From positions 44,224-108,223 of the forward strand of contig JAZLKX010000028.1 in the NCBI GenBank assembly GCA_045597865.1: a stretch of DNA of 64,000 nucleotides, written 5' to 3'. Below the pieces are notes generated by a model. It was not told where the DNA came from and did no database searches. It saw only the letters and a program-made list of their open reading frames with translations. Positions within the stretch are counted from its first letter, which is position 1, and each line of letters begins with the position of its first letter. This stretch comes from Bacilli bacterium (GTDB lineage Bacteria; Bacillota_I; Bacilli_A; RFN20; CAG-826). The position numbers were made by a program, and so were the translations under genes. This document shows, in pieces, positions 1 through 64,000 of this stretch.

Positions 1-363
1 TTCGCCCATCATTTCTGGTGTAGCGACGATTACATCGAATTCGAACCAATTCTCTTTTTGGATTTTTTCAATTAATTCCTTGCCTCCGGCAAAATCCGCA
101 CCGGCTGCTTTTGCATCCTCAACCTTGGATGTGATTGCGCAAATCTTTTTGCTCTTTCCGTTTCCGTTTGGGAGTATGAGAGTACCTCTGATTTGTTGAT
201 CTGCTTGTGTGGTATCAACATTAAAATGGAATGAGACATCGACTGTTGCGTCAAATTTGACGGTTGATGTTTTCTTGACAAGATCACATGCTTCCTTAAT
301 GGAATAAACCTTTGTGGAATCTACGAGTTCTGCGACCTTTTTGTAGTTCTTACCGAATTTCAT
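1..363 (-). CDS. rplA: 50S ribosomal protein L1 (5' part; runs off the window)
   Basis: Own translation from ATG at 363: MKFGKNYKKVAELVDSTKVYSIKEACDLVKKTSTVKFDATVDV...DQQIRGTLILPNGNGK...FDVIVATPEMMG; directly follows rplK. Confidence 0.97.
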   Translation of the reverse strand, partial: MKFGKNYKKVAELVDSTKVYSIKEACDLVKKTSTVKFDATVDVSFHFNVDTTQADQQIRGTLILPNGNGKSKKICAITSKVEDAKAAGADFAGGKELIEKIQKENWFEFDVIVATPEMMGE

Positions 364-48532: not shown

Positions 48533-48549
48533 GCCCATACAAGATGGGC
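48533..48549 (-). terminator. riboswitch-controlled terminator
   Basis: GCCCAT-CTTGT-ATGGGC + TTTGTTCTTCTTT; 5' arm CCCATCT can alternatively pair with AGATGGG at the P1 3' strand. Confidence 0.8.
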
Positions 48550-48568
48550 AAAGTAATAAAAAAATAAC

Positions 48569-48648
48569 CCATCTACCAAGCTTTAGCACCTTACTATTTG
48601 CAGGTTGCTGACGGGTCATTGAGCTTGTCTCTCGCCGTCTCTTTATGG
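48569..48648 (-). ncRNA. SAM-I (S-box) riboswitch, compact P4-less form
   Basis: CCAT-AAAGAG-ACGG-CGAGAG-ACAAG-CTC-AATGA-CCCGT-CAGCAACC...AGGTGCTAA-AGCTTG-GTAG-ATGG: P1, kink-turn P2, GCAACC/GGTGC P3 and CAAGC/GCTTG pseudoknot; TGaTATAAT promoter at 48656-48664. Confidence 0.88.
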
Positions 48649-48748
48649 TGCATATATTATATCACAAATAAGCTCCAATTTCCATTAAATCTGGCATAGG
48701 GATTATTATTACTTACAAAACAAAAGTTTTCCGTGTATAATAAAGCCT

Positions 48749-50638: not shown

Positions 50639-50639
50639 T

Positions 50640-50777
50640 ATGAAAAAAGAGAAGAAAAACGAGGCACCAAGAACTATCTCAAAAGCCGATCAAGATATGA
50701 TTGATGAACTCGATTACGAGTATAAAAAAGCCCACAAGCCTTATGACAAGTGGGAGAGACATTGGGACGAAGCTTAA
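50640..50777 (+). CDS. 45-aa small protein (not in ORF track)
   Basis: MKKEKKNEAPRTISKADQDMIDELDYEYKKAHKPYDKWERHWDEA; starts 1 nt after the EAL stop, AAAGGA upstream. Confidence 0.5.
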   Translation: MKKEKKNEAPRTISKADQDMIDELDYEYKKAHKPYDKWERHWDEA

Positions 50778-50837
50778 TCGTCCCTTTTATTTGGGTTTTT
50801 ACGGGGATTTCCACGCAAAATCCCAAATATTTTGCCT

Positions 50838-52970
50838 TTAAAGTATCTTTGCTTTTAATTTGATTTTGCCATCGCTGACATGCTTAAGAACATCATAAAT
50901 AATGACTGTTCCCCAAGAGTCAATTTTACAGTATGCGAGGGCTTGACCAAGCATCTCATTTTCGTCTGGATCATTATCAGTTGGATCAATATGATTTCTT
51001 ACGAGTAAAGCCTTAAAAAGATCGAGACAAATGCCACCGTTATAAACAAGAGCGCCTTCTTTGTGATAATCAAGCGAAAATCTTAAATCAAAAGGTAAAT
51101 TAATGGAATCATAATAGGCTTGAACGTCTTCATCATCACATAAAGTTGGTTGAACAACCTTAAGTGAGCCTCTTCCATTGAATTTTGTGCCATAGAATGA
51201 ACCAGAAGTAAAGAAATCAAGTAAGTCAACGACATTGTCATTAAAGTTTTGAACAAAATTAATAAGATCAGCGTCTACTTCAGGATGAGAAGCATAAAGT
51301 CTCACAAACTCATCCATTCTTGTTTTCTCAAAGTTTTGATTAAATACAACTACTTTGTAGTTCTTTGCCATTGGATTAATGCCAAAGTCAATTAATTGCT
51401 CTTTTAGAGTCTTAAAAAGGCTAAATTCAGGGTTTATATAGCCATCTATAGATGGATGACCAATAAATTCATAATGAGAACAGTTTCCGCCTCTTCCTTT
51501 GGCGAAATCATGTTTAGTTAAATCATAGCCTCTTCCAACAATATGCATTGAGTATTGAGTAACTACTTGTTGCCAAGGATGAGCATCTTTCATAAGAGGA
51601 ACTGGATTTTGAATTGATTCAAAGTCAAAGAAAACAAGATAATCAATATCATCGTTTAAATAATCTCTATGAAGGATTGAATTCATAAGATCCATATGAA
51701 TGACATAGTCAAACCCTTTTCCTAACCATTCAGTTTGGAATTTAATTTGGCTTCTAGCGTTTCCATATTTAATAACGCCATCTTTTTCACTTTCTTCTTT
51801 GTATTCATTCACTACTGAAGTTGGAATATCAGAAATATGTTCAATTCCAGCTTCAATAAGTTTCTTTGAACGTTGCCAAGTGCCACCATAAATATTCCAT
51901 CTTGTTAACTTAAATATTGAATTTGGATTATCTGCGTCATTAAAACAAGAGAGTAAGAAAGGACATTTTCCGCCTTTAACACATTCATAATGTTTATTTG
52001 GTTCAACTTCAAACTTAGTCGCGATAAATCTGATGTCTGAAATAACTTCTTCAATAGGAGTAATTTTAGGGTTACCATCCTTGTCTATCTTCTGATAGGC
52101 ATCTGAATCAAAGTAAGTAATAATTGGTACAATTTCAGTTTCTTCTTTGTTTTTCTTTAAATTAAGGTCAAATGATAACCTAAAAAGGTTATTAACGTCT
52201 TCATTACTTAAATTTGGGTAATTAACATCGCTTGAAGAGAATTTAAATTCTCTATTTAGGTGTAAATAGCCTAATCTAGCGATGTTAATACCTTCTTTGG
52301 TATAAATGTAGTACTGGAATAAAAGATCGTATAAATACGGGATTTTAATTCCGGTATGAATTTCATACTCTTTTTTCGGATGAGTGAAAGGTGAATTGGA
52401 ACCTTTGGCCTCAATTAGGGTAAAGGTTCCATTATCTTCTTTCACGAGTACATCAAATCTTGCTCTTAAGTCGTTATGCTCAACTTGGCCTTCAAAGATA
52501 ACTTTGACTGATGGATCTTTTAAGTATTGTTTGGTTTTCTCAACAATGTATTTTTGGTTAGTGGTTTCCACTCCAAAATCATTAACGTCGCATCTACGAC
52601 ATTTGTCTTCACCATAAATAAGTTCAATGTATCTTCTAGATAATCTCGCGGTTACTTGAGTATCTTCATATTTCTTAAGTAATCCATAAAGTGGATTTTC
52701 TTGTTGATGCTTGATGATAAGTTTTTCAATATCTTCTTTAAGATATAGATAATCTTTCATTATTTCGATGATATCAAATGTTTTATCAACACTTGGATCA
52801 TCGTTATCATCAAAAGCATCATCGACAATAGCTTCTTCAATGTCTTCTTTAGAGCCAAACTCTAAATAAGACTCGATGAGTCTAAGAAGCGTATTATCAT
52901 CTATTGATGCTTTTGCAAGATATGGACATTTTCTTGCAACATAATCTTTAATTATGCTTTTTGTGATCAT
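50838..52970 (-). CDS. DUF2779-type protein: PD-(D/E)XK (Cas4/RecB-like) nuclease + RNase H-like domain
   Basis: RFDVL...LIEAK, DL.FQYY, C....CPF...C, FFDFES, QYS.H, FE, DL, SLK.V, YC..D. Confidence 0.75.
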   Translation of the reverse strand: MITKSIIKDYVARKCPYLAKASIDDNTLLRLIESYLEFGSKEDIEEAIVDDAFDDNDDPSVDKTFDIIEIMKDYLYLKEDIEKLIIKHQQENPLYGLLKKYEDTQVTARLSRRYIELIYGEDKCRRCDVNDFGVETTNQKYIVEKTKQYLKDPSVKVIFEGQVEHNDLRARFDVLVKEDNGTFTLIEAKGSNSPFTHPKKEYEIHTGIKIPYLYDLLFQYYIYTKEGINIARLGYLHLNREFKFSSSDVNYPNLSNEDVNNLFRLSFDLNLKKNKEETEIVPIITYFDSDAYQKIDKDGNPKITPIEEVISDIRFIATKFEVEPNKHYECVKGGKCPFLLSCFNDADNPNSIFKLTRWNIYGGTWQRSKKLIEAGIEHISDIPTSVVNEYKEESEKDGVIKYGNARSQIKFQTEWLGKGFDYVIHMDLMNSILHRDYLNDDIDYLVFFDFESIQNPVPLMKDAHPWQQVVTQYSMHIVGRGYDLTKHDFAKGRGGNCSHYEFIGHPSIDGYINPEFSLFKTLKEQLIDFGINPMAKNYKVVVFNQNFEKTRMDEFVRLYASHPEVDADLINFVQNFNDNVVDLLDFFTSGSFYGTKFNGRGSLKVVQPTLCDDEDVQAYYDSINLPFDLRFSLDYHKEGALVYNGGICLDLFKALLVRNHIDPTDNDPDENEMLGQALAYCKIDSWGTVIIYDVLKHVSDGKIKLKAKIL

Positions 52971-53643
52971 ATGTAATATCTATGAATTCGATTCCGTCTT
53001 CGACAGGATGTAATTTCTTGTCCAAGACTTCTTCGTGGTATTCGAATTTAGGTTTGATAATATCAAGAATTAAACAAGAGTCTTCTGGTTTAATTTCTTC
53101 ATATTTTCCTTGGGACGCCATAACAACTTCTAAGAAGTGTTTTACGCAGTCATAGAAGCTTTCAAGGGTGTCTCCACTAGCGTACTTATGTAATGAAAGT
53201 TTCGCATTGAAATCTTTAATCGCACCACCAATTGATTCATAAATCATTCCTAAAGAAGCATAAGCTTCCTCTCTAGATATAGAAGTGAATGATGTCCAAT
53301 GGAAATGAGGAAGCTTTGCTTCTATCATATGTGGTAATGAATCATGAATTGCTAAACCTTCAATGATTTCAACTCTTTCATCAATAAGTTTTCCGTCATT
53401 AATCGCGAGTTGGAGAACAGAGTATTGAAGAAGAATATCAAATGACTTTAAAGAGTATTCTTTCATATACTCTGTATTGCCTCTAAATTCTTCACCTTCA
53501 TTGAAGAGTTTGAAAACATGTTCATTTAAAAATGAAACTAAGTTATCGTATTCTCTTTTCGCTACTGTGAAAAAGTTTTCAAAATCATCACTTAAATCTT
53601 CTTTTTGATCGTATACTTCTTCTAAAACTTTATTTTCTTCCAT
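52948..53643 (-). CDS. hypothetical protein
   Basis: 231-aa ORF with GAGGA RBS, overlapping the DUF2779 gene. Confidence 0.7.
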   Translation of the reverse strand: MEENKVLEEVYDQKEDLSDDFENFFTVAKREYDNLVSFLNEHVFKLFNEGEEFRGNTEYMKEYSLKSFDILLQYSVLQLAINDGKLIDERVEIIEGLAIHDSLPHMIEAKLPHFHWTSFTSISREEAYASLGMIYESIGGAIKDFNAKLSLHKYASGDTLESFYDCVKHFLEVVMASQGKYEEIKPEDSCLILDIIKPKFEYHEEVLDKKLHPVEDGIEFIDITYDHKKHN

Positions 53644-53749
53644 AAGTATATCCTCGCGTATTCGTTAACTTAAATTTTACCAAAGATTTAAGTTCGCCTC
53701 AATAAAAATAAAAGCCGTTGAGATTATCTCTCAAACGGCTCTAATTCAA

Positions 53750-53784
53750 GTGATAGAAGCTAGTCTTTGTATCACCCGATTTTT
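53750..53784 (-). repeat. hairpin element A, copy 1 (terminator at 53713-53740)
   Basis: AAAAATCGG-GTGATA-C-AAAG-ACTAG-CTTC-TATCAC overlapping the CDF stop codon. Confidence 0.85.
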
Positions 53785-54961
53785 AGTGAATATAACTGTT
53801 ATCAATCTTAATAACTGTTTTGTATTTTGAATCTTTATTAGAAATTGCTTCCTTAAGTGCTTCCACTATTTCGTCTTGATTCATGTTGCTTCCTAGTGGA
53901 ATGACCACATCAAATAAGACATTGGTGTGTGTTGGTCCTTTAACCATTCTTAAATCATGAAAAGTGAGTTCTTTATGGAATTTTCCTAGTGTTTTCGCGA
54001 TTATTTCCTTTAAAACCTTGAGTTCTGGATTCTTTGTATCGACAGGATCCATATGGATTGTAAGTTCAATTCCGTACTTACTTCCAACTTCACTTTCAAT
54101 GTTATCAATTAGGTCATGGGATTCCATCACATTGACATATGCATCAACCTCAACATGGAGGGTGATGAATATCTTGGTCTCTCCATAAGAATGAACGACA
54201 AGGTCGTGAATTCCAAGAACACCTTTGTATGATTTAACATCTTTAAGAATTGCCTTAACAAAGTCAGTGTCAGGAGTTAACCCAATAAGTGGAGATGTTG
54301 TCTCCATAACAAGTTTGATACCAGAGTAAAGAATGAATAATGCTACTGCGATAGAAACAGCAGGATCAAGCCACCATAAATCTGGGAAGAAATAAATAAT
54401 GATAGCAGTCACTAAAACTGCAGAAGTTGAAATAGCGTCGTTAATTGAATCTTGCATATTAGCTTTTAGGCTAACTGAATCAATTGCCTTGCCCATACCT
54501 CTATAGAAAAGACCAAGAAGTATCTTTCCGACAATTGCAACACCAAGAACAATAAAGGATGCAATTGTGAATGTTACATTAACATCATGGTTGATTAAAG
54601 CCATGATAGATGTGTAACCAAGCACAATTGCGACCGCAATAATGATAAAAGAAACAATCATGCCTGTAACATACTCTACACGCTCATGTCCATATGGATG
54701 TTTCTTGTCTGCAGGTTTTGATGCAATCTTAAAACCAAATAATGAAACAATATTGCTAACTAAATCAGTTAAGTTATTGATTGCATCTGAAATAATGGCT
54801 CTTGAACCTGCAAGAATACCAATTAAGAATTTAACGCCAAATAAAACAAGGTTAACAATAATGCCACCAATGGAGGCTACAAGTCCGTGTTTTTCACGTA
54901 CTTTCTTATCCTTAACGTTCTTATAATCTTTAATAAAGATTTTTCTTATTAAATTTATCAT
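53783..54961 (-). CDS. cation diffusion facilitator transporter (FieF-like)
   Basis: SDAINNLTD, PAD..HPYGHER.EY, D..ND, HDL.VH.YG. Confidence 0.92.
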   Translation of the reverse strand: MINLIRKIFIKDYKNVKDKKVREKHGLVASIGGIIVNLVLFGVKFLIGILAGSRAIISDAINNLTDLVSNIVSLFGFKIASKPADKKHPYGHERVEYVTGMIVSFIIIAVAIVLGYTSIMALINHDVNVTFTIASFIVLGVAIVGKILLGLFYRGMGKAIDSVSLKANMQDSINDAISTSAVLVTAIIIYFFPDLWWLDPAVSIAVALFILYSGIKLVMETTSPLIGLTPDTDFVKAILKDVKSYKGVLGIHDLVVHSYGETKIFITLHVEVDAYVNVMESHDLIDNIESEVGSKYGIELTIHMDPVDTKNPELKVLKEIIAKTLGKFHKELTFHDLRMVKGPTHTNVLFDVVIPLGSNMNQDEIVEALKEAISNKDSKYKTVIKIDNSYIH

Positions 54962-55034
54962 GGCAACATTTTAACACTTCTTATTAAATAAGTTCATATT
55001 ATTTTCAAATCTAATCTATAAGAAAACTCATATA

Positions 55035-55069
55035 GTCATAGAAGCTAGTCTTTGTATGACCCGATTTTT
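55035..55069 (-). repeat. hairpin element A, copy 2
   Basis: AAAAATCGG-GTCATA-C-AAAG-ACTAG-CTTC-TATGAC; differs from copy 1 only by one compensatory base pair. Confidence 0.85.
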
Positions 55070-55200
55070 CAAAAATGCCTTTCGTTTTCATCCTTAATGG
55101 TAATAAGCAATTTATAATGAGACCAATTTAGATGTTGCCACAGTGTAGCAACAAAGTATATTTTAGAAAATTTTACCATTCGAGATAGTTCTGAAAAGGA
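55069..55200 (-). pseudogene. DUF1016 (YhcG) N-terminal domain remnant
   Basis: Own translation SFSELSRMVKFSKIYFVATLWQHLNWSHYKLLITIKDENERHF*; aligns with FSRRNLARM...LSWSHY..LL......ERIFY of 55958..56911. Confidence 0.8.
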
Positions 55201-55368
55201 AAATAAATTATAATAAATATAATTTAATACCCTTTTAATTTTGCTAACAAAAAACTTCTCTTAATTCTGTTTTATTGAATGTGTATCAACTTCTATGTGT
55301 AAAATTACCCATATAAGTTTTCCAAAAGAATATTTTCACCACAAGACTCTTTCAAATGATGGATTTCA

Positions 55369-55507
55369 AAACCCCCCGAAATCGGTGGGTTTAAACGAGT
55401 CGAATTCGAGGCGGTTAAAATTTCAAAATCGATAAGTATTCCTCAAACCCGTCGAAATCGGTGGGTCTAAACCAGTCAAATTTGACTAATTTAATTTAGT
55501 CAAATTA
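55369..55507. repeat. tandem array of ~6 imperfect 24-bp palindromes
   Basis: AAACCCCCCGAAATCGGTGGGTTT / AAACGAGTCGAATTCGAGGCGGTT / degenerate unit / AAACCCGTCGAAATCGGTGGGTCT / AAACCAGTCAAATTTGACTAATTT / partial unit. Confidence 0.8.
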
Positions 55508-55543
55508 ATTTTTAAATTTCAAAAAGTATTTTCAAAAACAAGA

Positions 55544-55632
55544 TTGCTTTTTAAAAATAAAATGTAATAATTATTATTAGTCAGTAGGACCGATTACGGC
55601 CGGACTATTTGCTCCTGAAAAGGAGCTTTTTT
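55544..55632 (+). ncRNA. candidate small RNA 1 (promoter, hairpin, terminator)
   Basis: TTGCTT..TGtAATAAT, hairpin TAGTC..GACCG-ATTA-CGGCC..GACTA, terminator GCTCCT-GAAA-AGGAGC-T6; no ORF. Confidence 0.5.
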
Positions 55633-55723
55633 ATATCAAATTTTGCTCTTTTTGAAACTCTTCGATCTTTTGAGCGAATTCTTGTTCCTTCGCGAGGATC
55701 TCTTCTCATATTGCTCATCTATA

Positions 55724-55758
55724 CCCATAGACTGTAATAGTCGTATGGGCCGAATTTT
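55724..55758 (-). repeat. hairpin element A, copy 3
   Basis: AAAATTCGG-CCCATA-C-GACT-ATTAC-AGTC-TATGGG, then a truncated terminator half. Confidence 0.85.
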
Positions 55759-55771
55759 CATAAAAATACTA

Positions 55772-55848
55772 TTTACAAAAAACTGACGAATTGTACAATA
55801 TAAGTGAACCCAAGGTAGCGGATTAAGCTACAATCGGTTCTTTTTTTT
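55772..55848 (+). ncRNA. candidate small RNA 2 / orphan attenuator
   Basis: TTTACA-16-TACAAT, then GAACC..GTAGC-GGATTAA-GCTAC..GGTTC-T8; no downstream ORF. Confidence 0.45.
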
Positions 55849-55957
55849 ATTTCTTTTTAAATTTGTTTAAATAATTATTCACTATATCCTTAGGATAGAT
55901 ACTAACAAGTTTGTTAATATTAGCATTATAATCATTTATTAAAAAATCAATCATACA

Positions 55958-56911
55958 TCATTTGTTCATAAGCTTTTGAATTTCTAATTTCAATAACTCT
56001 TTATCCGGCAGTTGAGTTAAATATTTTCTCACAAAAATTTGATTAGAAATTGAACCTAAAGCATATTCAATTTGAATATCGTCTTTGTCCTGGCACAAAA
56101 CTATACCGATTGGATCACAGTCTGTGTCTTGATTTACTTCTTTTTTATAATAATTAAGATAAAAATTTAATTGCTCAATTGAATTATTGGTAATCTTTCC
56201 TTTCTTAAGTTCTATTAATACAAAGCATTTTAAATTTGTGTTATAGAAAACCATATCCATAAAATAAGATTTGTTATTTATTACTATTCTTTGTTGCTCA
56301 CCAATGAATGCAAAACCTTTTCCGAGTTCGAGCAAAAACATTTTTAAATGCTTAACTAATTCACTCTCCAAGTCTTTTTCTTTGAAATCATCTTTAAGAT
56401 TTAAAAACTCAAAAACTAACGGATTTTTTAAAAATACATTTTCTTTAATGTCTTTTGTTATTAGTTTGTTCTTTGGCGTTGTATCCAATTCTCCAAGCAA
56501 TACTCTTTCATATAATGATGATTTTATTTGCCTTCTAAGTTCACGAACACTCCAACACGCCCTTGAACACTCGCGTTCATAAAAAATTCTTTCCTCATAA
56601 TTTTCAAGAGCTAATAGTTCAGAATAATGTGACCAAGATAAATTGGGCGACACTGTCGCCCCATCACTATAATCTTTATAAAAGATTATCATTCTCGCAA
56701 GATTTCTTCTTGAAAAGCCTTCACCATACTTTGGTCTTAATTCTTTTTCAAGTTCATTAAGTGGCACATTTCTAGAGTTACAGATTATTTCTCCAATTTT
56801 AAGATAGCTTTTAAGTAATACTATGTTAACTGTTGAAACAACATATGATTGGGCTTCTTTAACAACCAACTCAATTTGATTAATAATTTCTTTGTTTTGA
56901 ATCTCTTTCAT
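55958..56911 (-). CDS. DUF1016/YhcG-family PD-(D/E)XK nuclease
   Basis: GFS..NL..M, LSWSHY, WSVRELRRQI...LYER, FLLELGKGFAF, D..FY...LKCFVLIELK, PIGIVLC. Confidence 0.92.
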   Translation of the reverse strand: MKEIQNKEIINQIELVVKEAQSYVVSTVNIVLLKSYLKIGEIICNSRNVPLNELEKELRPKYGEGFSRRNLARMIIFYKDYSDGATVSPNLSWSHYSELLALENYEERIFYERECSRACWSVRELRRQIKSSLYERVLLGELDTTPKNKLITKDIKENVFLKNPLVFEFLNLKDDFKEKDLESELVKHLKMFLLELGKGFAFIGEQQRIVINNKSYFMDMVFYNTNLKCFVLIELKKGKITNNSIEQLNFYLNYYKKEVNQDTDCDPIGIVLCQDKDDIQIEYALGSISNQIFVRKYLTQLPDKELLKLEIQKLMNK

Positions 56912-57041
56912 TAAATGTCCTCCTAATTATAATTTCAGGAGAATTTGTCATTTCCGATAAAAAACTTTCTAAGTCACTAAGTGACTTGTTTTTTTATAAT
57001 AAAAGCCATAAGAGATTTCTTTCTCATATGGCTCATCTATA

Positions 57042-57074
57042 CCCATAGACTGTAATAGTCGTATGGGCCGATTT
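57042..57074 (-). repeat. hairpin element A, copy 4 (terminator at 57004-57033)
   Basis: AAATCGG-CCCATA-C-GACT-ATTAC-AGTC-TATGGG overlapping the KilA-N stop codon. Confidence 0.88.
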
Positions 57075-57882
57075 ACTGCAATAATTTAGGCTTATAACTA
57101 GTAAATAATAGCTTTTCCTTATTGGCTTCTTCATTCAATAATACCAAGCGATCAGATTGTGGAATTCCCTTTTCAATTAACTTAGAATTAAGAAGTTCAA
57201 GATTTGAGAGAATTGTTAATTCAATAACATTTGCGAAATCACGAATATTACCATTTTGATTTGGATTTGCTTGTTTCCATTCATTTGCAGTTACCCCAAA
57301 CAAAGCAACATTAATAACATCTGCTTCTGATGCATATATAAAAGAAATCTGTTGTGGTTTTAAATCAATCTGAATAATGTTTTTCTTAATAGCGTCTGTT
57401 TGAAGCAGATAATTCAAACTTGATAGTTGGCGTTTTCCAGCCCAATCAAGACGTTTGTTTTCTTCTTCTTTTAAACGTTGATATTCACGAATAAGTAAGA
57501 CCTTGAATTCTGCAGATATCCAACTTGCGAATTCAAAAGCAATATCTTTGTGTGCGTATGTACCGCCACCATTTCTTCCAGATTTGACTCTAAGGCCGAT
57601 TGCATTTGTAAGATTAATCCATTTTGCTGGTGACATTGTAAAAGCATTCGTTCCTGGTTTGGTTTTAAACATATCGAAATCGATAGGTTTGAATTCTGAG
57701 TTGAATATAAATTCCCAAAAATGCAAAAATTCTAATGTATCAATTCTTCTCAACCAGTTACAAATTACAATGAATGGCTCTTCTGAATTTTTAGATCTTG
57801 CGATATCTGTAAGTGAGATATAATCATCTTCGTTAACTCCAGTAATGTTAATGTCCAAATTTTTAATTGTAAGTTTTTTCAT
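57073..57882 (-). CDS. KilA-N domain DNA-binding protein
   Basis: DYISLTDIA, NWLR...TLEFL..WE, GR.GGGTYAHKDIAFEFASWIS.EF, YASEAD..N.ALFG.TA..W, GNIRD. Confidence 0.9.
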   Translation of the reverse strand: MKKLTIKNLDINITGVNEDDYISLTDIARSKNSEEPFIVICNWLRRIDTLEFLHFWEFIFNSEFKPIDFDMFKTKPGTNAFTMSPAKWINLTNAIGLRVKSGRNGGGTYAHKDIAFEFASWISAEFKVLLIREYQRLKEEENKRLDWAGKRQLSSLNYLLQTDAIKKNIIQIDLKPQQISFIYASEADVINVALFGVTANEWKQANPNQNGNIRDFANVIELTILSNLELLNSKLIEKGIPQSDRLVLLNEEANKEKLLFTSYKPKLLQ

Positions 57883-58168
57883 AATTGAAACTCCTTTATT
57901 AAGTATGAGAAGAAAAAGAATTCAGTGCGTCATGCACTTAATCCTTCCTTCATCTTTCTCTACAAATATTATATTAAAAATAAGGCGAAAATTGAAGTTA
58001 AAATTAAAGAAATTAAATTATACAAAGTATAATTTAAAATCATACGTATTAAATATATAAATTAAATTTTATTATATTTAATACTCTTTCAAATTTGTTA
58101 ATAAATATTGTAATGATTTTTAAATTAATAAGCCGTGTGAGATGTATTTCTCATATGGCTCATCTATA

Positions 58169-58203
58169 CCCATAGACTGTAATAGTCGTATGGGCCGATT
58201 TTT
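58169..58203 (-). repeat. hairpin element A, copy 5 (terminator at 58131-58160)
   Basis: Near-identical to copy 4 over ~70 bp including the terminator. Confidence 0.88.
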
Positions 58204-58270
58204 CATCAAAATCCTAAGGTTTTCCTTGATATTTATATAATGGAAGGGTATTTAACCGTCATTGTGAATA

Positions 58271-58966
58271 TTAGAATCTCATTCCGCATCCATACATAAT
58301 AAGAATGGCTACACCTATAATTCCACCCATTACTAGAATTCCAATACCGACAATAATTAGAACGCTCTTTATAACATACTTTCTATCATTTGAAGCTTCT
58401 TTAGATAACGATATATTAACAACATTAGTAATGAGTTTATTTTCTAATGTGGCTTTTGTCATTTTTCCAGTTATATCGTTATCTTCTAGAGATGAGGTAT
58501 CAACCTCTTGTTTCATATATGCCTCGATAGTTTGTTTTACATTAAGTAACTTTTTTTGTGTTTCTTGAGAAATTGAATCTGTATACATTTCAAAAACAGG
58601 ACCAGCTAGGTTCCATTCCTTAGTAAGAACATAACTTCTTCTGGAATTGAATGATAAAGAATATGATGAAACATCACCATTTTTTGTAAAATAAGTAATC
58701 GTGATAGTCCAAATAAGAGGATTTCCAACGGTTGATAATGGAGCAGATCCTCCTATAATACCAATTCTACCTGATGTAGATATTGCACCGCCACTTACTG
58801 GTGTTCTTAAAATGTTATTTCTAACTCCTGAATTAGACACCTGAACGGATGATATATTTTCTATTGGGCATATGAATTGCTCAGCAAAATGATAGATGAC
58901 AACAAGGGCTGTGGCTTTTACCGCAGCTACTGCAACCTTAGAATTGAGTAAATCAATTAAAGACAT
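58271..58966 (-). CDS. hypothetical protein with C-terminal TM
   Basis: 231-aa ORF with AAGGAG RBS. Confidence 0.65.
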   Translation of the reverse strand: MSLIDLLNSKVAVAAVKATALVVIYHFAEQFICPIENISSVQVSNSGVRNNILRTPVSGGAISTSGRIGIIGGSAPLSTVGNPLIWTITITYFTKNGDVSSYSLSFNSRRSYVLTKEWNLAGPVFEMYTDSISQETQKKLLNVKQTIEAYMKQEVDTSSLEDNDITGKMTKATLENKLITNVVNISLSKEASNDRKYVIKSVLIIVGIGILVMGGIIGVAILIMYGCGMRF

Positions 58967-59126
58967 AAAGTTCTCCTTTCGTAATGAGCGAACTGCTCTA
59001 TGAAAGACATCAGTAGCTAAACCTCTTCAATTATATCACTTATATTTTTTATATCATCTTAAATAGTGTTTTCGTTTGTTGGCTCGCGTTACAATGTTTT
59101 CATTAGCCTTATTCAATGATATGGTC

Positions 59127-59162
59127 AAAAATTCGGCCAATACGACCTCTTCGGTCTATTGG
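59127..59162 (+). repeat. hairpin element A, copy 6 (followed by palindrome B at 59174-59221)
   Basis: AAAAATTCGG-CCAATA-C-GACC-TCTTC-GGTC-TATTGG. Confidence 0.85.
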
Positions 59163-59596
59163 TGATTATTAGAAAATATCCAGGATTTTAAAGGGATTTT
59201 CCCTGAAATTCCTGGATATTTCTTATTGAAGCACTGTAAGGAATAGGTGCTTAAACTAAGCGTATTTATTAAATAGCGAGTTTACCTTATATTAGTAATC
59301 TAAAATTCAAAAGTTATAGGTTCTAAATAATTATAACTATCAGTGTGGTCTCATTAACAATACATATTAACCAGACCACTTAGTAATCCAAAATATTAAA
59401 AGACTCAATTCATCCTTGCGGCTGAACCCAGTCTTTTCTTATACCTCTATTTTTACTGTTTATAAGTTTTTGGGCATTTTTGTGCTTTTTATTTACAAAG
59501 TAAATAATTTCGTTCACGAAAAATGGGAATAGATTTTTTGTACGCGTGTTATGATTTATATAACCCATAAACATATCAATGCGAAAGGATAAATAT

Positions 59597-60586
59597 ATGA
59601 ATATCGATGAATTAATTAATTTACTTATTAACAAACAAATCAACACTCGAAATAATGCGACTTATTGTGTTAATCAAATGCTTTTAGACATGAATATGTT
59701 TTTTGGCAAATATATTAGCGATTATATAGAAGAAAACAAAAAGCAAAAGAACTGCAAAAAATTAACAATCAGCAAAATTTCTGAAGAACTTACAAAACAG
59801 CTAGGTAAGGGATACTCCAGACAAAATTTGTCAAAGATGTTAATTTTTTATACTATGTATAAAAAATGCTCGGAGGTTCCGAGCAATTTGTCTTGGTCAC
59901 AAATATGCGAACTCCTATATATCAAAAATATCAACGAACGTAAATTCTATGAAATTGAATGTGTAAAACAAAGATGGTCATCAACAGAATTGAGAAGGCA
60001 AATTCAAACTGGCTATTATCAAAGAGTACTGCTCGGTTCGAAAGAAAATATTCAAACAAAAGCAAACCAATTGTCCACTATTGGAAATGAAATTATTGAA
60101 CCTAGAGATATTTTGGTAGACCCCATTGTCTTAAATTTCTTTAAACAAAAAACAAACCTTAAAGAAAAAGATATCGAAACTGGAATTATTGGCCATTTAA
60201 AAGAATTTCTTCTTGAGCTTGGCTCTGGATTTAGATTCATCGACAATCAATATCAATTCAATATATCAAACAAGAAATATTTTGTTGATTTAGTATTCTA
60301 TAATGAAGTGCTTAAATGCTACGTTCTAATAGAGCTAAAGTCAGCACCGTTCCATAAAGATGTTATTGGCCAAATCAATACCTACCTCAACTATTTCAAA
60401 AGCAACATAAACAAACCTGGAGACAACGATCCAATTGGCATTGTTATGTGCACTGATTTTGAACATATACAAGTTGAATATGCATTAGGGAATATATCGA
60501 ATCAAATATTCGTGACAAAATACATTACCCATCTTCCAAAGAAAGAAGATCTCGAAAGAGAATTATTATTAGCTCAAAAACGTTAA
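59597..60586 (+). CDS. second DUF1016/YhcG-family PD-(D/E)XK nuclease
   Basis: GKGYS..NL..M, LSWS, WS..ELRRQI, FLLELG.GF.F, DLVFY...LKCYVLIELK, PIGI; start MNIDE after AAAGGA. Confidence 0.92.
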   Translation: MNIDELINLLINKQINTRNNATYCVNQMLLDMNMFFGKYISDYIEENKKQKNCKKLTISKISEELTKQLGKGYSRQNLSKMLIFYTMYKKCSEVPSNLSWSQICELLYIKNINERKFYEIECVKQRWSSTELRRQIQTGYYQRVLLGSKENIQTKANQLSTIGNEIIEPRDILVDPIVLNFFKQKTNLKEKDIETGIIGHLKEFLLELGSGFRFIDNQYQFNISNKKYFVDLVFYNEVLKCYVLIELKSAPFHKDVIGQINTYLNYFKSNINKPGDNDPIGIVMCTDFEHIQVEYALGNISNQIFVTKYITHLPKKEDLERELLLAQKR

Positions 60587-60623
60587 AATTCGGCCCATAC
60601 GAGCAAAGAGAGTGCTCTATGGG
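60585..60623 (+). repeat. hairpin element A, copy 7 (followed by palindrome B at 60631-60678)
   Basis: AAAATTCGG-CCCATA-C-GAGCA-AAGAGAG-TGCTC-TATGGG overlapping the DUF1016 stop codon. Confidence 0.88.
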
Positions 60624-60753
60624 AATATAGAAATATCCAGGAATTTAAGTGAAAATCCCCAGAAAATCCTGGATATTTTAAAAGAATCATATATAAGACA
60701 TACAAAAACTCAATGACTTATTAGAAGAAAGAAATCTTCCTATTATTGAGTAA

Positions 60754-61671
60754 TTATATTTTTGAGTAGCCACAACCGCACGCTCCACAATGAGGGCAAA
60801 TAATCCAACCGCATTTTGGGCATATTTCCATATACAATGAATCTAAGTTCTGCTGGCACTTGTAACAATGGGTTACTCTTCTATTTAATTTTCTTAGTAT
60901 TCCTTTTGATCCGTATTTTCGTGTGTACTCCAAAACAGACTTATCTAAATCAGAATTGTTATAAATAACATCTTCCACTATATCTTTGTTGATACGGTAA
61001 TCGCCAACATCAACATAAAGTTGTATCCAAGCATTTTGTTCATCTATTATTTCAAGTGTTTTACGATGTTTAATGCCATATTTGTTCATAAGGTAGATAA
61101 TTGCCTTATCTTTAAATGTTTCACCTTCTTGAATGTCGTATATTAAATCGTAATCATAAATTGAAAGTTTATAGTTTTTAAATGTTGAGTTGTCACCGTC
61201 ATATGTAAAGCCTTGGTTTGCATCAAATTGTTTTACAACTTCAATATGTTTAATACCAATTACATTTTTACAATAATCACCAAGTAACGATTTTAATTCA
61301 TTTACTGATTTGCCATATACAATAGAAAAAACTTTTTCTGTTTGCTTACTAGTGCTTTCTAAATAAACGGCACCACCATAACTTATGTTATAAGCAAGGT
61401 TATTCAAAAAAGCCATCTTTATGCGTGGATTAATTGACTCAATACATTTCCCATCTATAAGCGGCAAGAAACAGTATTTGCATCTTGGTGTATTTGAATC
61501 AACGAGCTGATATTCCTTCAAAAACTCTTCTTCAGTAAGCGATTCAATAACATTAGGAGAAGAAACTTTTGCAAAACAAATTTTCCTGCAAGTTGAAAAT
61601 TGAATGATATTAACTACAACACAAAAATCTTGTTTGTTTGTATAAAGTGAATTTATTTCAATGTTAGCCAT
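60754..61671 (-). CDS. hypothetical protein with C-terminal Cys-rich zinc ribbon
   Basis: CYKC...CPKCGWIICPHCGACGC; AGGAG RBS. Confidence 0.7.
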   Translation of the reverse strand: MANIEINSLYTNKQDFCVVVNIIQFSTCRKICFAKVSSPNVIESLTEEEFLKEYQLVDSNTPRCKYCFLPLIDGKCIESINPRIKMAFLNNLAYNISYGGAVYLESTSKQTEKVFSIVYGKSVNELKSLLGDYCKNVIGIKHIEVVKQFDANQGFTYDGDNSTFKNYKLSIYDYDLIYDIQEGETFKDKAIIYLMNKYGIKHRKTLEIIDEQNAWIQLYVDVGDYRINKDIVEDVIYNNSDLDKSVLEYTRKYGSKGILRKLNRRVTHCYKCQQNLDSLYMEICPKCGWIICPHCGACGCGYSKI

Positions 61672-61685
61672 AAATGTCTCCTATA

Positions 61686-61916
61686 TTATATTGATTCATT
61701 CTCGGAATGTGTATACTCGCCTGTGGACATATTAACTTTAGTTGGGTAGCCATCTTTTATTTTGATTGTTAATGTTTTAACGATTGATCCTTCTTCAGTC
61801 GCAAAATAATTAATAGCTTCAATTAAACACGCTAGTAAATTTGCATACTGATTGTCATTCATTGTTTGTTTTTTTAAATGTTTCGTGAATAACTTAATTT
61901 TTTGTTTGTCTGTCAT
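61686..61916 (-). CDS. 76-aa hypothetical protein
   Basis: AGAGGT RBS before MTDKQK; probably co-transcribed with the zinc-ribbon gene. Confidence 0.55.
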   Translation of the reverse strand: MTDKQKIKLFTKHLKKQTMNDNQYANLLACLIEAINYFATEEGSIVKTLTIKIKDGYPTKVNMSTGEYTHSENESI

Positions 61917-62198
61917 AAATACCTCTTTTATTTTATGCGGGTGACCATAAGATATAAAACTTAGGCCACCCATATGTAAGGAGAGCTGTACGTTTTAAGT
62001 ACACTTATATTATACACTGGATATTTGACAAAATTTCGTTGTTATAGACTAAGTCTATAAAAATTCCTTGCTCTTCTAAACTTTCTATCACCTATCTTAG
62101 GAATTATATTAATATAATTCCGCCTATCTTATCCCTATAGTCCCTTCTCTTATTCTTTCCTAAATCTTCTTTTTGACATATATCAAATACATGGTCAG

Positions 62199-62238
62199 AA
62201 ATCGTACCCATACGAGCAAAGAGAGTGCTCTATGGGTA
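62199..62238 (+). repeat. hairpin element A, copy 8 (terminator at 62244-62273)
   Basis: AAATCGTA-CCCATA-C-GAGCA-AAGAGAG-TGCTC-TATGGG, same hairpin as copy 7. Confidence 0.85.
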
Positions 62239-62407
62239 AATAAAAAGACAAGGGTTCTAACTCCCTTGCCTTTAAAGATTATCTCCGTCTAAGAGATATT
62301 AATATTATACACCTAATTTGTTAAAAGAAAACCCACGCTCTAGAAACGTGGGCTCGTCCGAGGAAAGACGTATAGTCTGGATAAGTCTCAATAAGGAGTA
62401 AAGAGAG

Positions 62408-63202
62408 CTAATCCCTTAAATTTAATTTTTTAAGTATATTGAGCGATACATCCTTCTTTGCTTCAACCTTAGTTGTGCCATAACCTTCATCTTTTAATTG
62501 AATTGTTTTGGAACCTTTTCTGTAGGTTACAATACATTTACATTTCCACATCTTCCAGCCATCAATGTCATACATTTTGTTATCAAAAGAATACTTTGCA
62601 TCTAAAAGAATACGTTTATCCACTAATTCTTTGAGCTTACTTGTAGCTTCATTTAATTCTATTTGAGAATCAACATAGCATTTAATTCTTTCTTTTGCTT
62701 TTAAGACTCCTTTTGAATCAAGCAACTTTTCAACAACCGGAACAATCTTCTTCATATCGTAATTTGAATCTATGGCCATCGCTCCAATGATTGCCTCAAT
62801 TAGATCAGCTTTAACTTTTGTAGTGTTCACCACATTATTTTTCTTATCTGCATCTCCTAAATACATATAGCCTGCTAAACCTAACTTATCTACAATTCCT
62901 GCTAGATATTCATTAGAAGTTAAGTCTTGTTTGTACTCGGTGAAATTGAATTCTGTTAAGTTACCTTCAGAATATAATTCCTTGGGTTTTTCCATTGAAA
63001 TCCCCATAAATTCACGAGTAAATATGTTGATTACGCAATATTCGAGGATTGTATCGCCAATGAATTCCAAGAGTTCATTTGACTCTCCTCCGTGATCAAC
63101 AACATAGCTTTTTCTTTTGAATGCTTGATATAGCAAATCTTTGTTATTAAATTGATAGCCAATCAATTCCATGACTTTTTCATTATTTTGTTTTAAATCC
63201 AT
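62408..63202 (-). CDS. ribonuclease III-family protein (accessory, divergent) with dsRBD-like C-terminus
   Basis: IGYQF....LL.QAF...SY, NELLEFIGD, ADLIEAIIGA..ID, G.G.TK.EAK. Confidence 0.85.
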   Translation of the reverse strand: MDLKQNNEKVMELIGYQFNNKDLLYQAFKRKSYVVDHGGESNELLEFIGDTILEYCVINIFTREFMGISMEKPKELYSEGNLTEFNFTEYKQDLTSNEYLAGIVDKLGLAGYMYLGDADKKNNVVNTTKVKADLIEAIIGAMAIDSNYDMKKIVPVVEKLLDSKGVLKAKERIKCYVDSQIELNEATSKLKELVDKRILLDAKYSFDNKMYDIDGWKMWKCKCIVTYRKGSKTIQLKDEGYGTTKVEAKKDVSLNILKKLNLRD

Positions 63203-63416
63203 ATCTAAAACCTCTTTCTATCCCAAAGAAAGAATCCATGATTAACAAAACGACCAATGGATATTAGTTTCAAATAATTTTTGTAGTCACATCCATATAA
63301 ATAAGAGCCTAGAACTTTTACTTATATAAATCAGATTACTCGATTAGTTCAAACCAATTTCTTATTGGGATGCACTTATTCTATCAAAAATATACCCATA
63401 TATCAATTATGGGCAT

Positions 63417-63452
63417 AAAAAATCGGATGATACGAGAACTAGTCTTTATCGG
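63417..63452 (+). repeat. hairpin element A, copy 9 (terminator-like hairpin at 63461-63483)
   Basis: AAAAAATCGG-ATGATA-C-GAGA-ACTAG-TCTT-TATCGG; same ACTAG loop as copies 1 and 2; degenerate CCCATA/TATGGG hairpin just upstream (63395-63413). Confidence 0.75.
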
Positions 63453-63593
63453 TATAGAAAAGCCGGCTTCACTTTAGCCGGCTCTGACAAGTTTTTACTT
63501 GTAGGAAGATATTACATGCCTTATCTTCGAATTTTTAGAAAAAGAAAAGCAAAAAGTGCTTGGTAATCTTTTTGCTTTTCAATGTTAGAAAGA

Positions 63594-63824
63594 TTATTTT
63601 TCTCTTAATGGTGCACCAACATTATCTCTGAACGCGCCGGTTGCGATTTTTAGTAAATCAATTAACCAGCCTAAGAGAAAGCAGCCACCTGTTATAGCGA
63701 ATAAGAGTCCTCTACCAATTCTACCAACGTAGAAATTGTGTAAACCAATAATTCCACCGAAAGCACAAAAAATTAATGCTTTACGTTTGCTCTTATCACT
63801 TGTTTGTGTAACGTAAGAAGACAT
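63594..63824 (-). CDS. TM2-domain membrane protein
   Basis: KSK..ALI.C.FGG..GLH.FYVG....G.L...T.G....GW.ID; GGGAGG RBS. Confidence 0.88.
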   Translation of the reverse strand: MSSYVTQTSDKSKRKALIFCAFGGIIGLHNFYVGRIGRGLLFAITGGCFLLGWLIDLLKIATGAFRDNVGAPLREK

Positions 63825-63850
63825 AAACTTTCCTCCCTTATAATATTTTT

Positions 63851-63883
63851 ATTCTATAGAGAGAGAGAGAGAGAGAGAGTCAA
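63851..63883 (-). promoter_or_regulatory. promoter with (TC)11 microsatellite spacer
   Basis: TTGACT (63883-63878), 21-bp spacer of TC repeats, TAGAAT (63856-63851). Confidence 0.75.
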
Positions 63884-63907
63884 GCACTTTCACTATGTGA
63901 GTGCTAA
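63881..63907 (-). promoter_or_regulatory. CIRCE-like (HrcA) operator
   Basis: TTAGCACTC-N9-AAGTGCTTG: one perfect arm, exact 9-bp spacer, second arm 6/9, overlapping the -35 box. Confidence 0.6.
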
Positions 63908-63957
63908 ATTTTTAAAATAAAAAACGCACGGTTATTCCGAGCGTTGTGAATGTTTTA

Positions 63958-63999
63958 TTAATCTACTGTTGCTGAGAACTCAACATCCTTTTTGTCAGC
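63958..63999 (-). CDS. 3' end of a gene entering from the right edge
   Basis: ...ADKKDVEFSATVD followed by TAA TAA and a terminator-like hairpin at 63921-63945. Confidence 0.45.
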   Translation of the reverse strand, partial: ADKKDVEFSATVD

Positions 64000-64000
64000 T

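Follow-up and report, generated by a model that had tools for sequence, protein, structure and literature searches.

Repetitive extragenic palindromic (REP) sequences are imperfect palindromes of ~35-40 nt that carry a 5′ GTAG motif, occur in hundreds of copies genome-wide and go together with a REP-associated tyrosine transposase (RAYT). The attC sites of integrons measure 57-141 nt; to our knowledge, integrons are essentially absent from the chromosomes of Bacillota. Y1 HUH transposases use a subterminal bulged hairpin and a nearby single-stranded motif, and the Bacillus cereus group harbors bcr1, a lineage-specific intergenic repeat akin to miniature inverted-repeat transposable elements, with a conserved fold, compensatory changes and presence/absence polymorphism. 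The promoter early stem-loop (PeSL) cassettes of T4-type phages were reportedly treated by Comeau and colleagues in 2014 (PMC4122927). PeSLs are outlined as modules of conserved promoter and terminator stem-loop that flank non-essential genes of the hyperplastic region (Arbiol et al., 2010; PMC2839356), and REP and RAYT are the subject of a review (PMC3184786). Here we describe E, a structured element of ~40 nt in a 64,000-nt stretch of DNA (the window) that forms the end of contig C28 in G000, the metagenome-assembled genome (MAG) of a Bacilli bacterium (1.74 Mb, 58 contigs, 96.9% complete). Related arrays are found in the MAGs G017 and G008, and a single diverged copy in the sister species G030. 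The best reading, to which we assign a probability of about 0.45, is that E is a palindromic DNA element of REP-like kind, specific to its lineage; with the same probability, we favor a DNA-level function in which E is a hairpin joint, mobile or recombinogenic, at cassette borders.

E is a small structured junction repeat that lacks what defines integrons, REPtrons and derivatives of IS200/IS605. By analogy, it is closest to REP in form, and to attC and the PeSL modules of T4-type phages in genomic role. With REP it shares an imperfect palindrome of 35-40 nt, a short single-stranded 5′ motif, an extragenic position at gene 3′ ends and covarying subfamilies. However, the motif of E is AAAAWTCGG, and GTAG occurs in none of the 38 5′ flanks available; the copies number ~17, with 15 gathered in a single island, none was seen as an inverted doublet (REPIN), and neither G000 nor G017 has a Y1/RAYT gene. 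The likeness to attC lies in a folded site with an extrahelical base, in conservation of structure over sequence, in the presence of one site per unit and in frequent overlap with a stop codon, while a cargo rich in toxin-antitoxin and defense genes recalls integrons and also clusters of attC sites lacking integrases (CALIN arrays). In contrast to integrons, no IntI integrase is present, the motifs RYYYAAC/GTTRRRY occur in two of 38 copies, both times in the flank, and there is no R″/R′ core; E is also ~40 nt long, is found in mixed orientation and separates units that appear to have promoters and terminators of their own (by eye). The lack of attC and GTAG signatures agrees with a preliminary description of the window that was made from its letters alone. 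PeSLs resemble E as stem-loop or terminator modules in a hyperplastic region, where differences between relatives map to the modules, but they are phage-borne and recombine by homology, whereas E is chromosomal, is not a terminator, has no demonstrated promoter and possesses an invariant bulged core. IS200/IS605 elements and palindrome-associated transposable elements (PATEs) likewise place a bulged hairpin beside a single-stranded motif; E differs in having a single hairpin type per joint, with no pair of left and right ends and no TnpA in G000 or G017. Finally, bcr1 is also a lineage-specific structured intergenic repeat that is polymorphic between close relatives, but E is much shorter, is concentrated at cassette joints in one island and, at the rpoC site, shows no clear terminal inverted repeats or target duplication.

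Each copy of E opens with AAAAWTCGG, which leads into a 10-bp hairpin with a single bulged C. An alignment of ten copies (the nine of the window and one from another contig) resolves this hairpin into a 6-bp stem, the bulged C, a 4-bp stem and a loop. All nine copies placed in the window by the preliminary description were recovered at their positions by a sequence pattern together with a covariance model. The loose pattern TCGG-NNNATAC-8..16-TATNNN matched seven of the nine, against 0.08 expected from 100 shuffles, a control that overstates independence because the 38 copies come from four genomes and one stray contig and form about six subfamilies. It missed the copy at 60585, which has a 7-nt loop, and that at 62199, which has an altered 5′ motif; the former was regained by a whole-genome regular expression, and both by the covariance model built from the ten-copy alignment. 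These nine sites are the model's sole matches in the 64 kb, and the absence of E from the first 53 kb, as claimed earlier, holds at the sensitivity of the model. The copies and the hairpins beside them are as follows.

53750..53784, minus strand: E copy 1, GTGATA/TATCAC type, its A-run overlapping the stop codon of a cation-efflux (CDF) gene; it lies between the CDF block and a conserved block of terminator and 231-aa gene, and both of its edges are synteny breakpoints against G017 and G008
53702..53742, minus strand: terminator hairpin after copy 1, kept in G017 without a preceding E (from fold and alignment)
55035..55069, minus strand: E copy 2, GTCATA/TATGAC type, upstream of the putative CDF promoter; kept in G000, G008 and G017, with unrelated flanks 5′ of the A-run
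55724..55758, minus strand: E copy 3, CCCATA/TATGGG type
57042..57075, minus strand: E copy 4, overlapping the stop codon of a KilA-N gene; loose ends of metagenome contigs fall at 57073
56995..57034, minus strand: terminator hairpin after copy 4, of the AGCCATATGAG...CTTATGGCTTTT type (z-score of E with this hairpin, -5.5)
58169..58203, minus strand: E copy 5, the last on this strand
59128..59162, plus strand: E copy 6, CCAATA/TATTGG type, the first on this strand; contexts diverge left of 59128
59171..59223, plus strand: long hairpin T-b (ATATCCAGG...CCTGGATAT) after copy 6, recurring after copy 7
60585..60623, plus strand: E copy 7, with a 7-nt loop, overlapping the second DUF1016 gene at its stop codon; to the left of 60585 contexts diverge
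60632..60680, plus strand: T-b hairpin after copy 7
62197..62236, plus strand: E copy 8, with the altered 5′ motif AGAAATCGTA, antisense to both neighbors and lost in other strains along with the two genes to its left
62244..62273, minus strand: terminator hairpin beside copy 8, oriented for a minus-strand RNase III-like gene
63418..63452, plus strand: E copy 9, ATGATA/TATCGG, its stem including G.U pairs and one mismatch; both neighbors are antisense to it

The copies are spaced 689-1614 bp apart, matching the 0.7-1.6 kb given earlier, and copies 5 and 6 point their 5′ ends at one another across a 231-aa gene at 58271-58966.

What is conserved in E is its predicted fold. In the ten-copy alignment, which contains all the covarying stems listed in the preliminary description, 96% of cells pair and five of the ten pairs have changed on both sides; sliding the 3′ partners by 1-3 columns lowers pairing to 21-42%. 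The same five pairs covary when 38 copies are aligned to the model (16 from G000, 15 from G017, 4 from G008, 1 from G030 and 2 from a stray contig; 37 distinct sequences), where 97.8% of cells pair. They are the three outer and the two innermost pairs, with 3-5 standard pair types each. Four pairs are invariant, namely the three A-U/U-A/A-U pairs beside the bulge and an A-U pair of the inner stem, which leaves the hairpin core ATA-C-GA / TC-TAT; the bulged C has become T in one of 38 copies, as read from the alignment. The 5′ motif AAAA(A/T)TCGG is well kept, with no conservation further upstream, and copies are homogeneous within an array. Because the stem ends have changed with pairing kept while the bulge region has not, the folded core is read as being recognized by some factor. 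No known RNA family accounts for E: a scan of the whole window against Rfam 15 at gathering level gave none that explains it, and between 53600 and 64000 nothing at an E-value ≤ 5 reaches the gathering score of any family. The weak matches that touch E (RF00841, potC, int-alpA and snoR775) score 23-27 bits against gathering scores of 36-72. The window's sole gathering-level Rfam match is a SAM riboswitch (RF00162) at 48548-48651 on the minus strand, with 48.3 bits.

The two edges of E are the places where contexts change, within the genome, between species and between strains. Strain comparison of the kind proposed earlier locates breakpoints exactly in front of AAAAWTCGG and at the 3′ foot of the hairpin. 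For instance, the CDF unit is common to G000, G008 and G017, with homology that sets in at the A-run of the upstream copy and ends at the stop codon of CDF; outside it, both flanks are unrelated among the three genomes. The stop codon is followed by E copy 1 in G000 and by a plain terminator in G017. To the left of the array lies a block made up of a terminator hairpin, a putative promoter, a 231-aa gene and a DUF2779 gene, which is conserved in G017. Homology between the two genomes over this block starts at 53751, the 3′ foot of the copy 1 hairpin, so that copy 1 sits exactly between two blocks that are not adjacent in G017, where the terminator-231aa block is preceded by a different gene and no E.

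Another example is found downstream of rpoC, whose proteins are 98-99% identical. G000 and G017 carry ~90 nt more than G008 here, consisting of E, a spacer and a second hairpin with a T-tract, with no gene. On one side of this module is the terminator belonging to rpoC and on the other the promoter-like sequence of a lipoprotein gene, and the corresponding junction of G030 is E-less, like that of G008. By parsimony, the module would be an insertion in the G000/G017 lineage. The empty and filled sites show a possible TAAA target duplication, which is not clear, and no terminal inverted repeats beyond the A-tract and T-tract. The gene after rpoC, read as having a lipobox signal peptide, is itself 77% identical between G000 and G017, with neighbors at 97-99%, and its divergence begins after the signal peptide (L006 5056-6615 versus L022 7257-8828). 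In G030 (contig C9, L071), the gap between rpoC and the lipoprotein gene holds an extra gene of ~1 kb with internal repeats, and the promoter-like region is duplicated on both sides of it.

Variation between strains was followed with Logan contigs from four gut or faeces metagenome runs of three studies, mapped to 50000-64000 at 85% likeness; the evidence consists of the best 15 of 116 joints and the best 24 of more than 1100 loose ends, and the bins 58406-58872 and 62609-63075, with near-zero cover in the four runs, were excluded as evidence of absence. Metagenome contexts diverge exactly left of 59128, 60585 and 63418, each the first A of the motif. At the other edge, the hairpin 3′ ends 62236 and 63452/3 are joined to other terminator modules (59171/2, 59395 and 60623). 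A joint from 60753 to 62242, seen in three runs of two studies, removes two genes and E copy 8 (60754-62241), with its right end 5 nt past the hairpin. Units with E at one end are shown to be gained or lost, and a cargo-free module of E and terminator is shown to be polymorphic at a core locus. These results support the earlier view of discrete, structure-conserved elements on the joints between gene units. As to what such elements are, the cargo-free rpoC module fits the non-autonomous mobile hairpin-terminator then suggested, while the integron-like array suggested beside it is left without an integrase.

The covariance model gave 19 matches in G000 at an E-value ≤ 10, of which 17 were accepted: nine in the window, six on contig C37, one at C28:34642 (downstream of rpoC) and one at C1 20475. 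A match with an E-value of 0.09 was rejected as apparently lying inside a P-loop coding frame, from a reading of its flank, and another with an E-value of 7 was also rejected. The C37 copies lie at 64.2-69.5 kb, all on one strand and 1.6-7 kb from the contig end. C28 ends in a 141-mer that recurs, with 100% identity and in reverse complement, as the end of C37; since it is exact and found at no other place in the assembly, the two contigs can be joined. The overlap (L001 15007-15147) begins at a (GA)n run at ~63860-63881. The joined island, a hyperplastic region, spans ~17 kb with about 15 copies, five minus and then ten plus. A scatter of copies behind core genes, which would have spoken against cassette sites, is not what the genome holds: 15 of the 17 are in one island and the other two are singletons elsewhere, one of them behind rpoC.

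E is restricted to a small group of genomes. Within the genus, Ca. Fiminaster of the RFN20 Bacilli, the model at an E-value ≤ 0.001 finds it in three of 37 species genomes, namely G000, G017 (13-14 copies; completeness 93%) and G008 (4 copies), while G030 has its single diverged copy at 34.7 bits. Identity of the CDF protein to that of G000 is 95% in G017, 89% in G008, 67% in G030 and at most 50% in other genus genomes with a match, and because the carriers are thereby the closest relatives, with G030 next, E belongs to a subclade rather than to scattered lineages. Neither 150 further genomes of the same family (48 genera) nor 24 from the order's other families yielded a copy. When GTDB was scanned for the exact pattern, with each species represented by one genome, 24 stretches were returned, among which only those of the G017 and G008 MAGs (Bacilli bacterium Horse_feces354; Candidatus Fiminaster equi) and of contig L037 are real; 19 of the 24 were run through the model, giving two strong matches, both in L037, and one weak. 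L037 is a 5.4-kb contig binned as ‘Ca. Kurthia equi’, with two copies of E and 88-99% identity to G017 array contigs where the two match; probably it comes from Fiminaster and was placed in the wrong MAG. Ca. Fiminaster is equated with GTDB genus UBA3207, family CAG-826, order RFN20, in the part of the literature drawn on here (PMC8957277). JGI metagenomes (21 stretches) and IMG/VR (one) yielded two weak model matches of 29-31 bits, taken as chance, and blastn of E with its second hairpin against phage and plasmid collections gave no match. In a search for one conserved chromosomal site, the array flanks were found to differ among G000, G008, G017 and G030, and the region is therefore considered rearranged. 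The genes between the copies of the window are the following.

53783..54961, minus strand: CDF transporter, 89-95% identical in G008 and G017
55958..56911, minus strand: DUF1016/YhcG PD-(D/E)XK nuclease, copy 1
57073..57882, minus strand: KilA-N protein, matching PADLOC candidate defense family PDC-S22
58271..58966, minus strand: 231-aa protein without family match, where the orientation of E flips
59579..60586, plus strand: DUF1016/YhcG, copy 2 (PADLOC PDC-S02), with a truncated, 91% identical copy in the C37 part
60754..61973, minus strand: two genes of 305 aa and 95 aa without family match, absent together with E copy 8 in some metagenome strains
62408..63202, minus strand: RNase III-like protein, below the equivalog cut-off for true RNase III
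63594..63824, minus strand: TM2-domain protein
63860..64000: 141-nt overlap with the end of C37, reverse complement

The C37 part of the array also carries a third, truncated DUF1016 gene and an IS3-type transposase pair, a helix-turn-helix (HTH) orfA with an rve orfB at L001 9798-10903. Cargo of the G017 and G008 arrays includes AbiEii, a HipA-like kinase, YafQ with an HTH partner, DUF2442-HTH, zinc-ribbon membrane proteins, an iron ABC transporter operon and TnpB. The only proteins common to the arrays are CDF, DUF1016, one HTH protein and one 75-aa protein. Judged by family assignment, the cargo is made up of candidate defense genes, toxin-antitoxin pairs, a transporter and uncharacterized proteins, the type found in cassette banks. 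Between E copies 2 and 3, a gene-free stretch of 640 bp holds a short hairpin motif twice, at 55360-55470 (CCC..GAAATCGGTGGGT.TAAAC); the motif includes AAATCGG as well and has no Rfam match. Positions 55438-55704 are 91% identical in G017. The DUF2779 gene left of the array (50838-52970, minus strand) encodes a 710-aa protein of the UU173 family, 0.8 kb from the array edge, which is 92% identical in G017 and 79% in G030.

A second hairpin usually follows E, as had been described. In 25 of the 36 testable copies, that is, those far enough from a contig end, a stable hairpin (-9 kcal/mol or better) begins within ~20 nt 3′ of the element. The types of this hairpin are unrelated to one another (AGCCATATGAG..., ATATCCAGG...CCTGGATAT, AAGACTCAATTC... 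and others); the AGCCATATGAG...CTTATGGCTTTT type is the most frequent partner of E, and hairpin types and E subfamilies combine freely. RNA folds of six stretches of E with its second hairpin gave the bulged hairpin as modeled, followed by the second, in five, at z-scores between -3.1 and -5.5 (between -4.9 and -5.5 at four of the six sites); in the fold of the 63411 copy the second hairpin alone is stable (z = -1.6). E itself is distinct from a terminator, and intrinsic terminators adjoin it. Both neighboring genes share the orientation of E at 20 of the 38 copies and are antisense to it at 10; 4 copies have convergent neighbors, none has divergent ones, and 4 are without one neighbor. Orientation is untied from transcription in 10 of the 36 copies with both neighbors called. 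E thereby avoids promoter-only regions and occupies terminator territory, with an orientation loosely tied to transcription. A promoter consensus scan returned 53 sites against 55 expected, and no promoter within the module was shown; by eye, promoter-like sequences stand 3′ of E before the CDF gene and before the lipoprotein gene. With these putative promoters, the array units appear self-contained, each with its own promoter, gene or genes and terminator.

A second, unrelated repeat family, T2, is a long terminator hairpin (AAAGATAACACCT...AGGTGTTTTCTTTT). Six copies stand 1-2 kb apart in G030 (contig C2, L018 11608-19588), including both sides of the CDF gene, and three are found on G000:C1 36754-43947. 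Given its presence in both genomes, the bounding of units by repeated terminator modules seems to be a wider habit of the genus.

A DNA-level role for E is favored by three lines of evidence, its clustering in one island, its antisense copies and the cargo-free insertion after rpoC. A number of observations weigh against this reading, and the first of these concern transcription. Where an upstream gene is called (36 copies), it runs in the direction of E 26 times, and three window copies overlap stop codons, those of the CDF, KilA-N and second DUF1016 genes. A fourth overlap had been claimed, with a DUF1016 remnant at the 55724 copy, but tblastn finds no such remnant. Given the upstream co-orientation and these overlaps, an RNA 3′-end element fits equally well. 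E could be a hairpin of the 3′ untranslated region that is bound by an RNA-binding protein or RNase and, with the terminator, stabilizes or insulates transcripts; its place at the joints would then come merely from traveling with the gene it serves. The absence of copies between divergent genes and the four between convergent ones suit this proposal, as do the second hairpin of most copies, the two clean hairpins at the sites with the lowest z-scores and the lack of any DNA enzyme found. The post-rpoC copy is also stably orthologous in G000 and G017, where one compensatory pair differs (GCCATA/TATGGC versus CCCATA/TATGGG); the pairing kept through this two-sided change is counted for the RNA reading, and the orthology speaks for persistence rather than mobility. 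Against an RNA function stand the 10 of 36 copies that are antisense to both neighboring genes, and copy 1, which is missing in G017 before the same terminator. Moreover, the rpoC copy should be little transcribed, since it sits after the rpoC terminator and before the next promoter-like sequence, and 15 of 17 copies gather in one variable island, not behind genes genome-wide. On balance, an RNA element is less likely than a DNA joint but is a serious rival to it.

The covariation is likewise open to a second look. On the element strand, G.U pairs occur about as often as A.C mismatches, and these counts favor neither strand as the one that folds. Intrastrand template switching in quasi-palindromes can also yield covariation without selection, in a single step, which makes covariation weaker proof of selection here than in ordinary RNA. 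In addition, every genome used is a MAG, with contigs broken at the arrays.

Not all joints fall on the edges of E. The 60754-62241 indel begins on its left at the stop codon of the 305-aa gene rather than at an E, and a joint from 59176 to 60634, by which the DUF1016 unit is lost, lies inside the T-b repeat ATATCCAGG with 9 ambiguous letters. The latter looks like plain homologous recombination, and some shuffling clearly does happen inside repeated terminators. It may be asked whether this holds for the whole array, with E and the terminators serving as portable homology like PeSLs that RecA recombination or replication slippage shuffles and no factor reads. The free combination of E and second-hairpin subfamilies, the units bounded by T2 in G030 and on G000 contig C1, and the failure to find an enzyme all agree with such a passive repeat. 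Shared ancestry alone is an unlikely source, however, of four invariant pairs in 37 sequences with the bulge changed once, when five other pairs show 3-5 types each. E is also not itself the terminator, and ~40 nt is short for efficient homologous exchange. A purely passive repeat is therefore regarded as improbable.

The search for an acting enzyme gave a further set of results against a DNA-level role, as no recombinase or transposase is common to the arrays of the three genomes and no recombinase stands at the locus. In G000, G008, G017 and G030, the best match to the integron integrase profile (IntI, TIGR02249) scores 78 bits against a cut-off of 265, and all matches are Xer-sized tyrosine recombinases on other contigs. 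The tyrosine recombinases as a whole are Xer-sized with a few others, none of them on array contigs. Y1_Tnp (PF01797) is absent from G000 and G017 and has two members in G008, both on other contigs. Rep_trans (PF02486), Mob_Pre (PF01076) and MobA_MobL (PF03389) have no member in G000, G008 or G017; across the 37 genomes of the genus, their carriers number 5, 1 and 0, all without E. The linked tyrosine recombinase or Y1/HUH gene that had been envisaged is thus missing from the locus, and no part of the genome bore out the suggestion of an enzyme outside the window.

Four other candidates were considered and set aside. Serine recombinases occur only in G000 (contig C57) and in G010, which is without E, and are neither specific nor near. 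IS110 transposases are found in genomes with and without E, and the three copies in G000 stand on small contigs consisting only of the insertion sequence (IS), with no E at their ends. DUF1016, with six copies or fragments in the arrays, is present in 18 of the 37 genus genomes, 15 of which lack E; at least in the portion of one study drawn on here, it is treated as ordinary mobile-element cargo (PMC4316617). The TnpB of the G008 array belongs to an independent IS605-type insertion with left- and right-end hairpins of its own (CTCGG...CCGAG), unrelated to E. This TnpB-only element (G008:C2, L002 8272-9812) interrupts an HTH cassette that is intact in G017.

The same results bear on whether the locus is a true integron analogue in a Gram-positive bacterium, in which a dedicated, unrecognized recombinase would read the bulged hairpin and move circular cassettes of cargo and E. 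As in attC, structure is kept while sequence varies, one base is extrahelical and the flank holds a conserved motif. E is sharply bounded on both sides, both the 60754-62241 indel and the junction between CDF-E and the terminator resemble a cargo with E at its 3′ side, the cargo is like that of chromosomal integrons, and E copies are homogeneous within an array. Such an analogue, which needs an enzyme that the search did not find, is nevertheless improbable. IntI is absent, as is any recombinase at or near an array, and the attC core motifs of two of 38 copies fall in the flanks by chance. The orientation of E flips along the island (five minus, then ten plus), and the units appear, by eye, to have their own promoters and terminators. 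One indel does not have E at its left end and one deletion lies inside the T-b repeat. The unrelated terminator-type repeat that bounds units in the sister species G030 points to a general rather than a dedicated process.

The reading preferred here, a DNA-level hairpin joint, can be put in the form of a tentative mechanism. E would act as a joint for the exchange of gene units, with its hairpin forming in single-stranded DNA. There, the invariant bulged core might be recognized by a trans-acting factor of the host or of a mobile element; this factor would be encoded away from the locus and would differ from integron integrases, Y1/HUH transposases and the relaxase families tested. Ordinary recombination between repeated modules of E and terminator may add to the shuffling, as with the PeSL cassettes of T4-type phages. 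A bolder version of this mechanism, for which the odds are poor, is an integrase-free form of cassette capture in RFN20 Bacilli that relies on folded hairpins of ~40 nt with one extrahelical base and on an enzyme from a class so far unconnected with sites like these, neither IntI nor a Y1 HUH transposase nor a known relaxase. That enzyme would excise, insert and reorder defense and toxin-antitoxin units, making the system a functional integron analogue of independent origin.

The wider question addressed by E is how islands of defense and toxin-antitoxin genes are built up and turned over in small-genome gut Bacilli. Should there be a factor specific for the hairpin, the few enzyme-site pairs known to work on folded single-stranded DNA would gain a new member. 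Even as a REP-like junction repeat, E offers a covariance model that delimits cassettes and tracks strain-level gene flow in uncultured bacteria of the horse gut.

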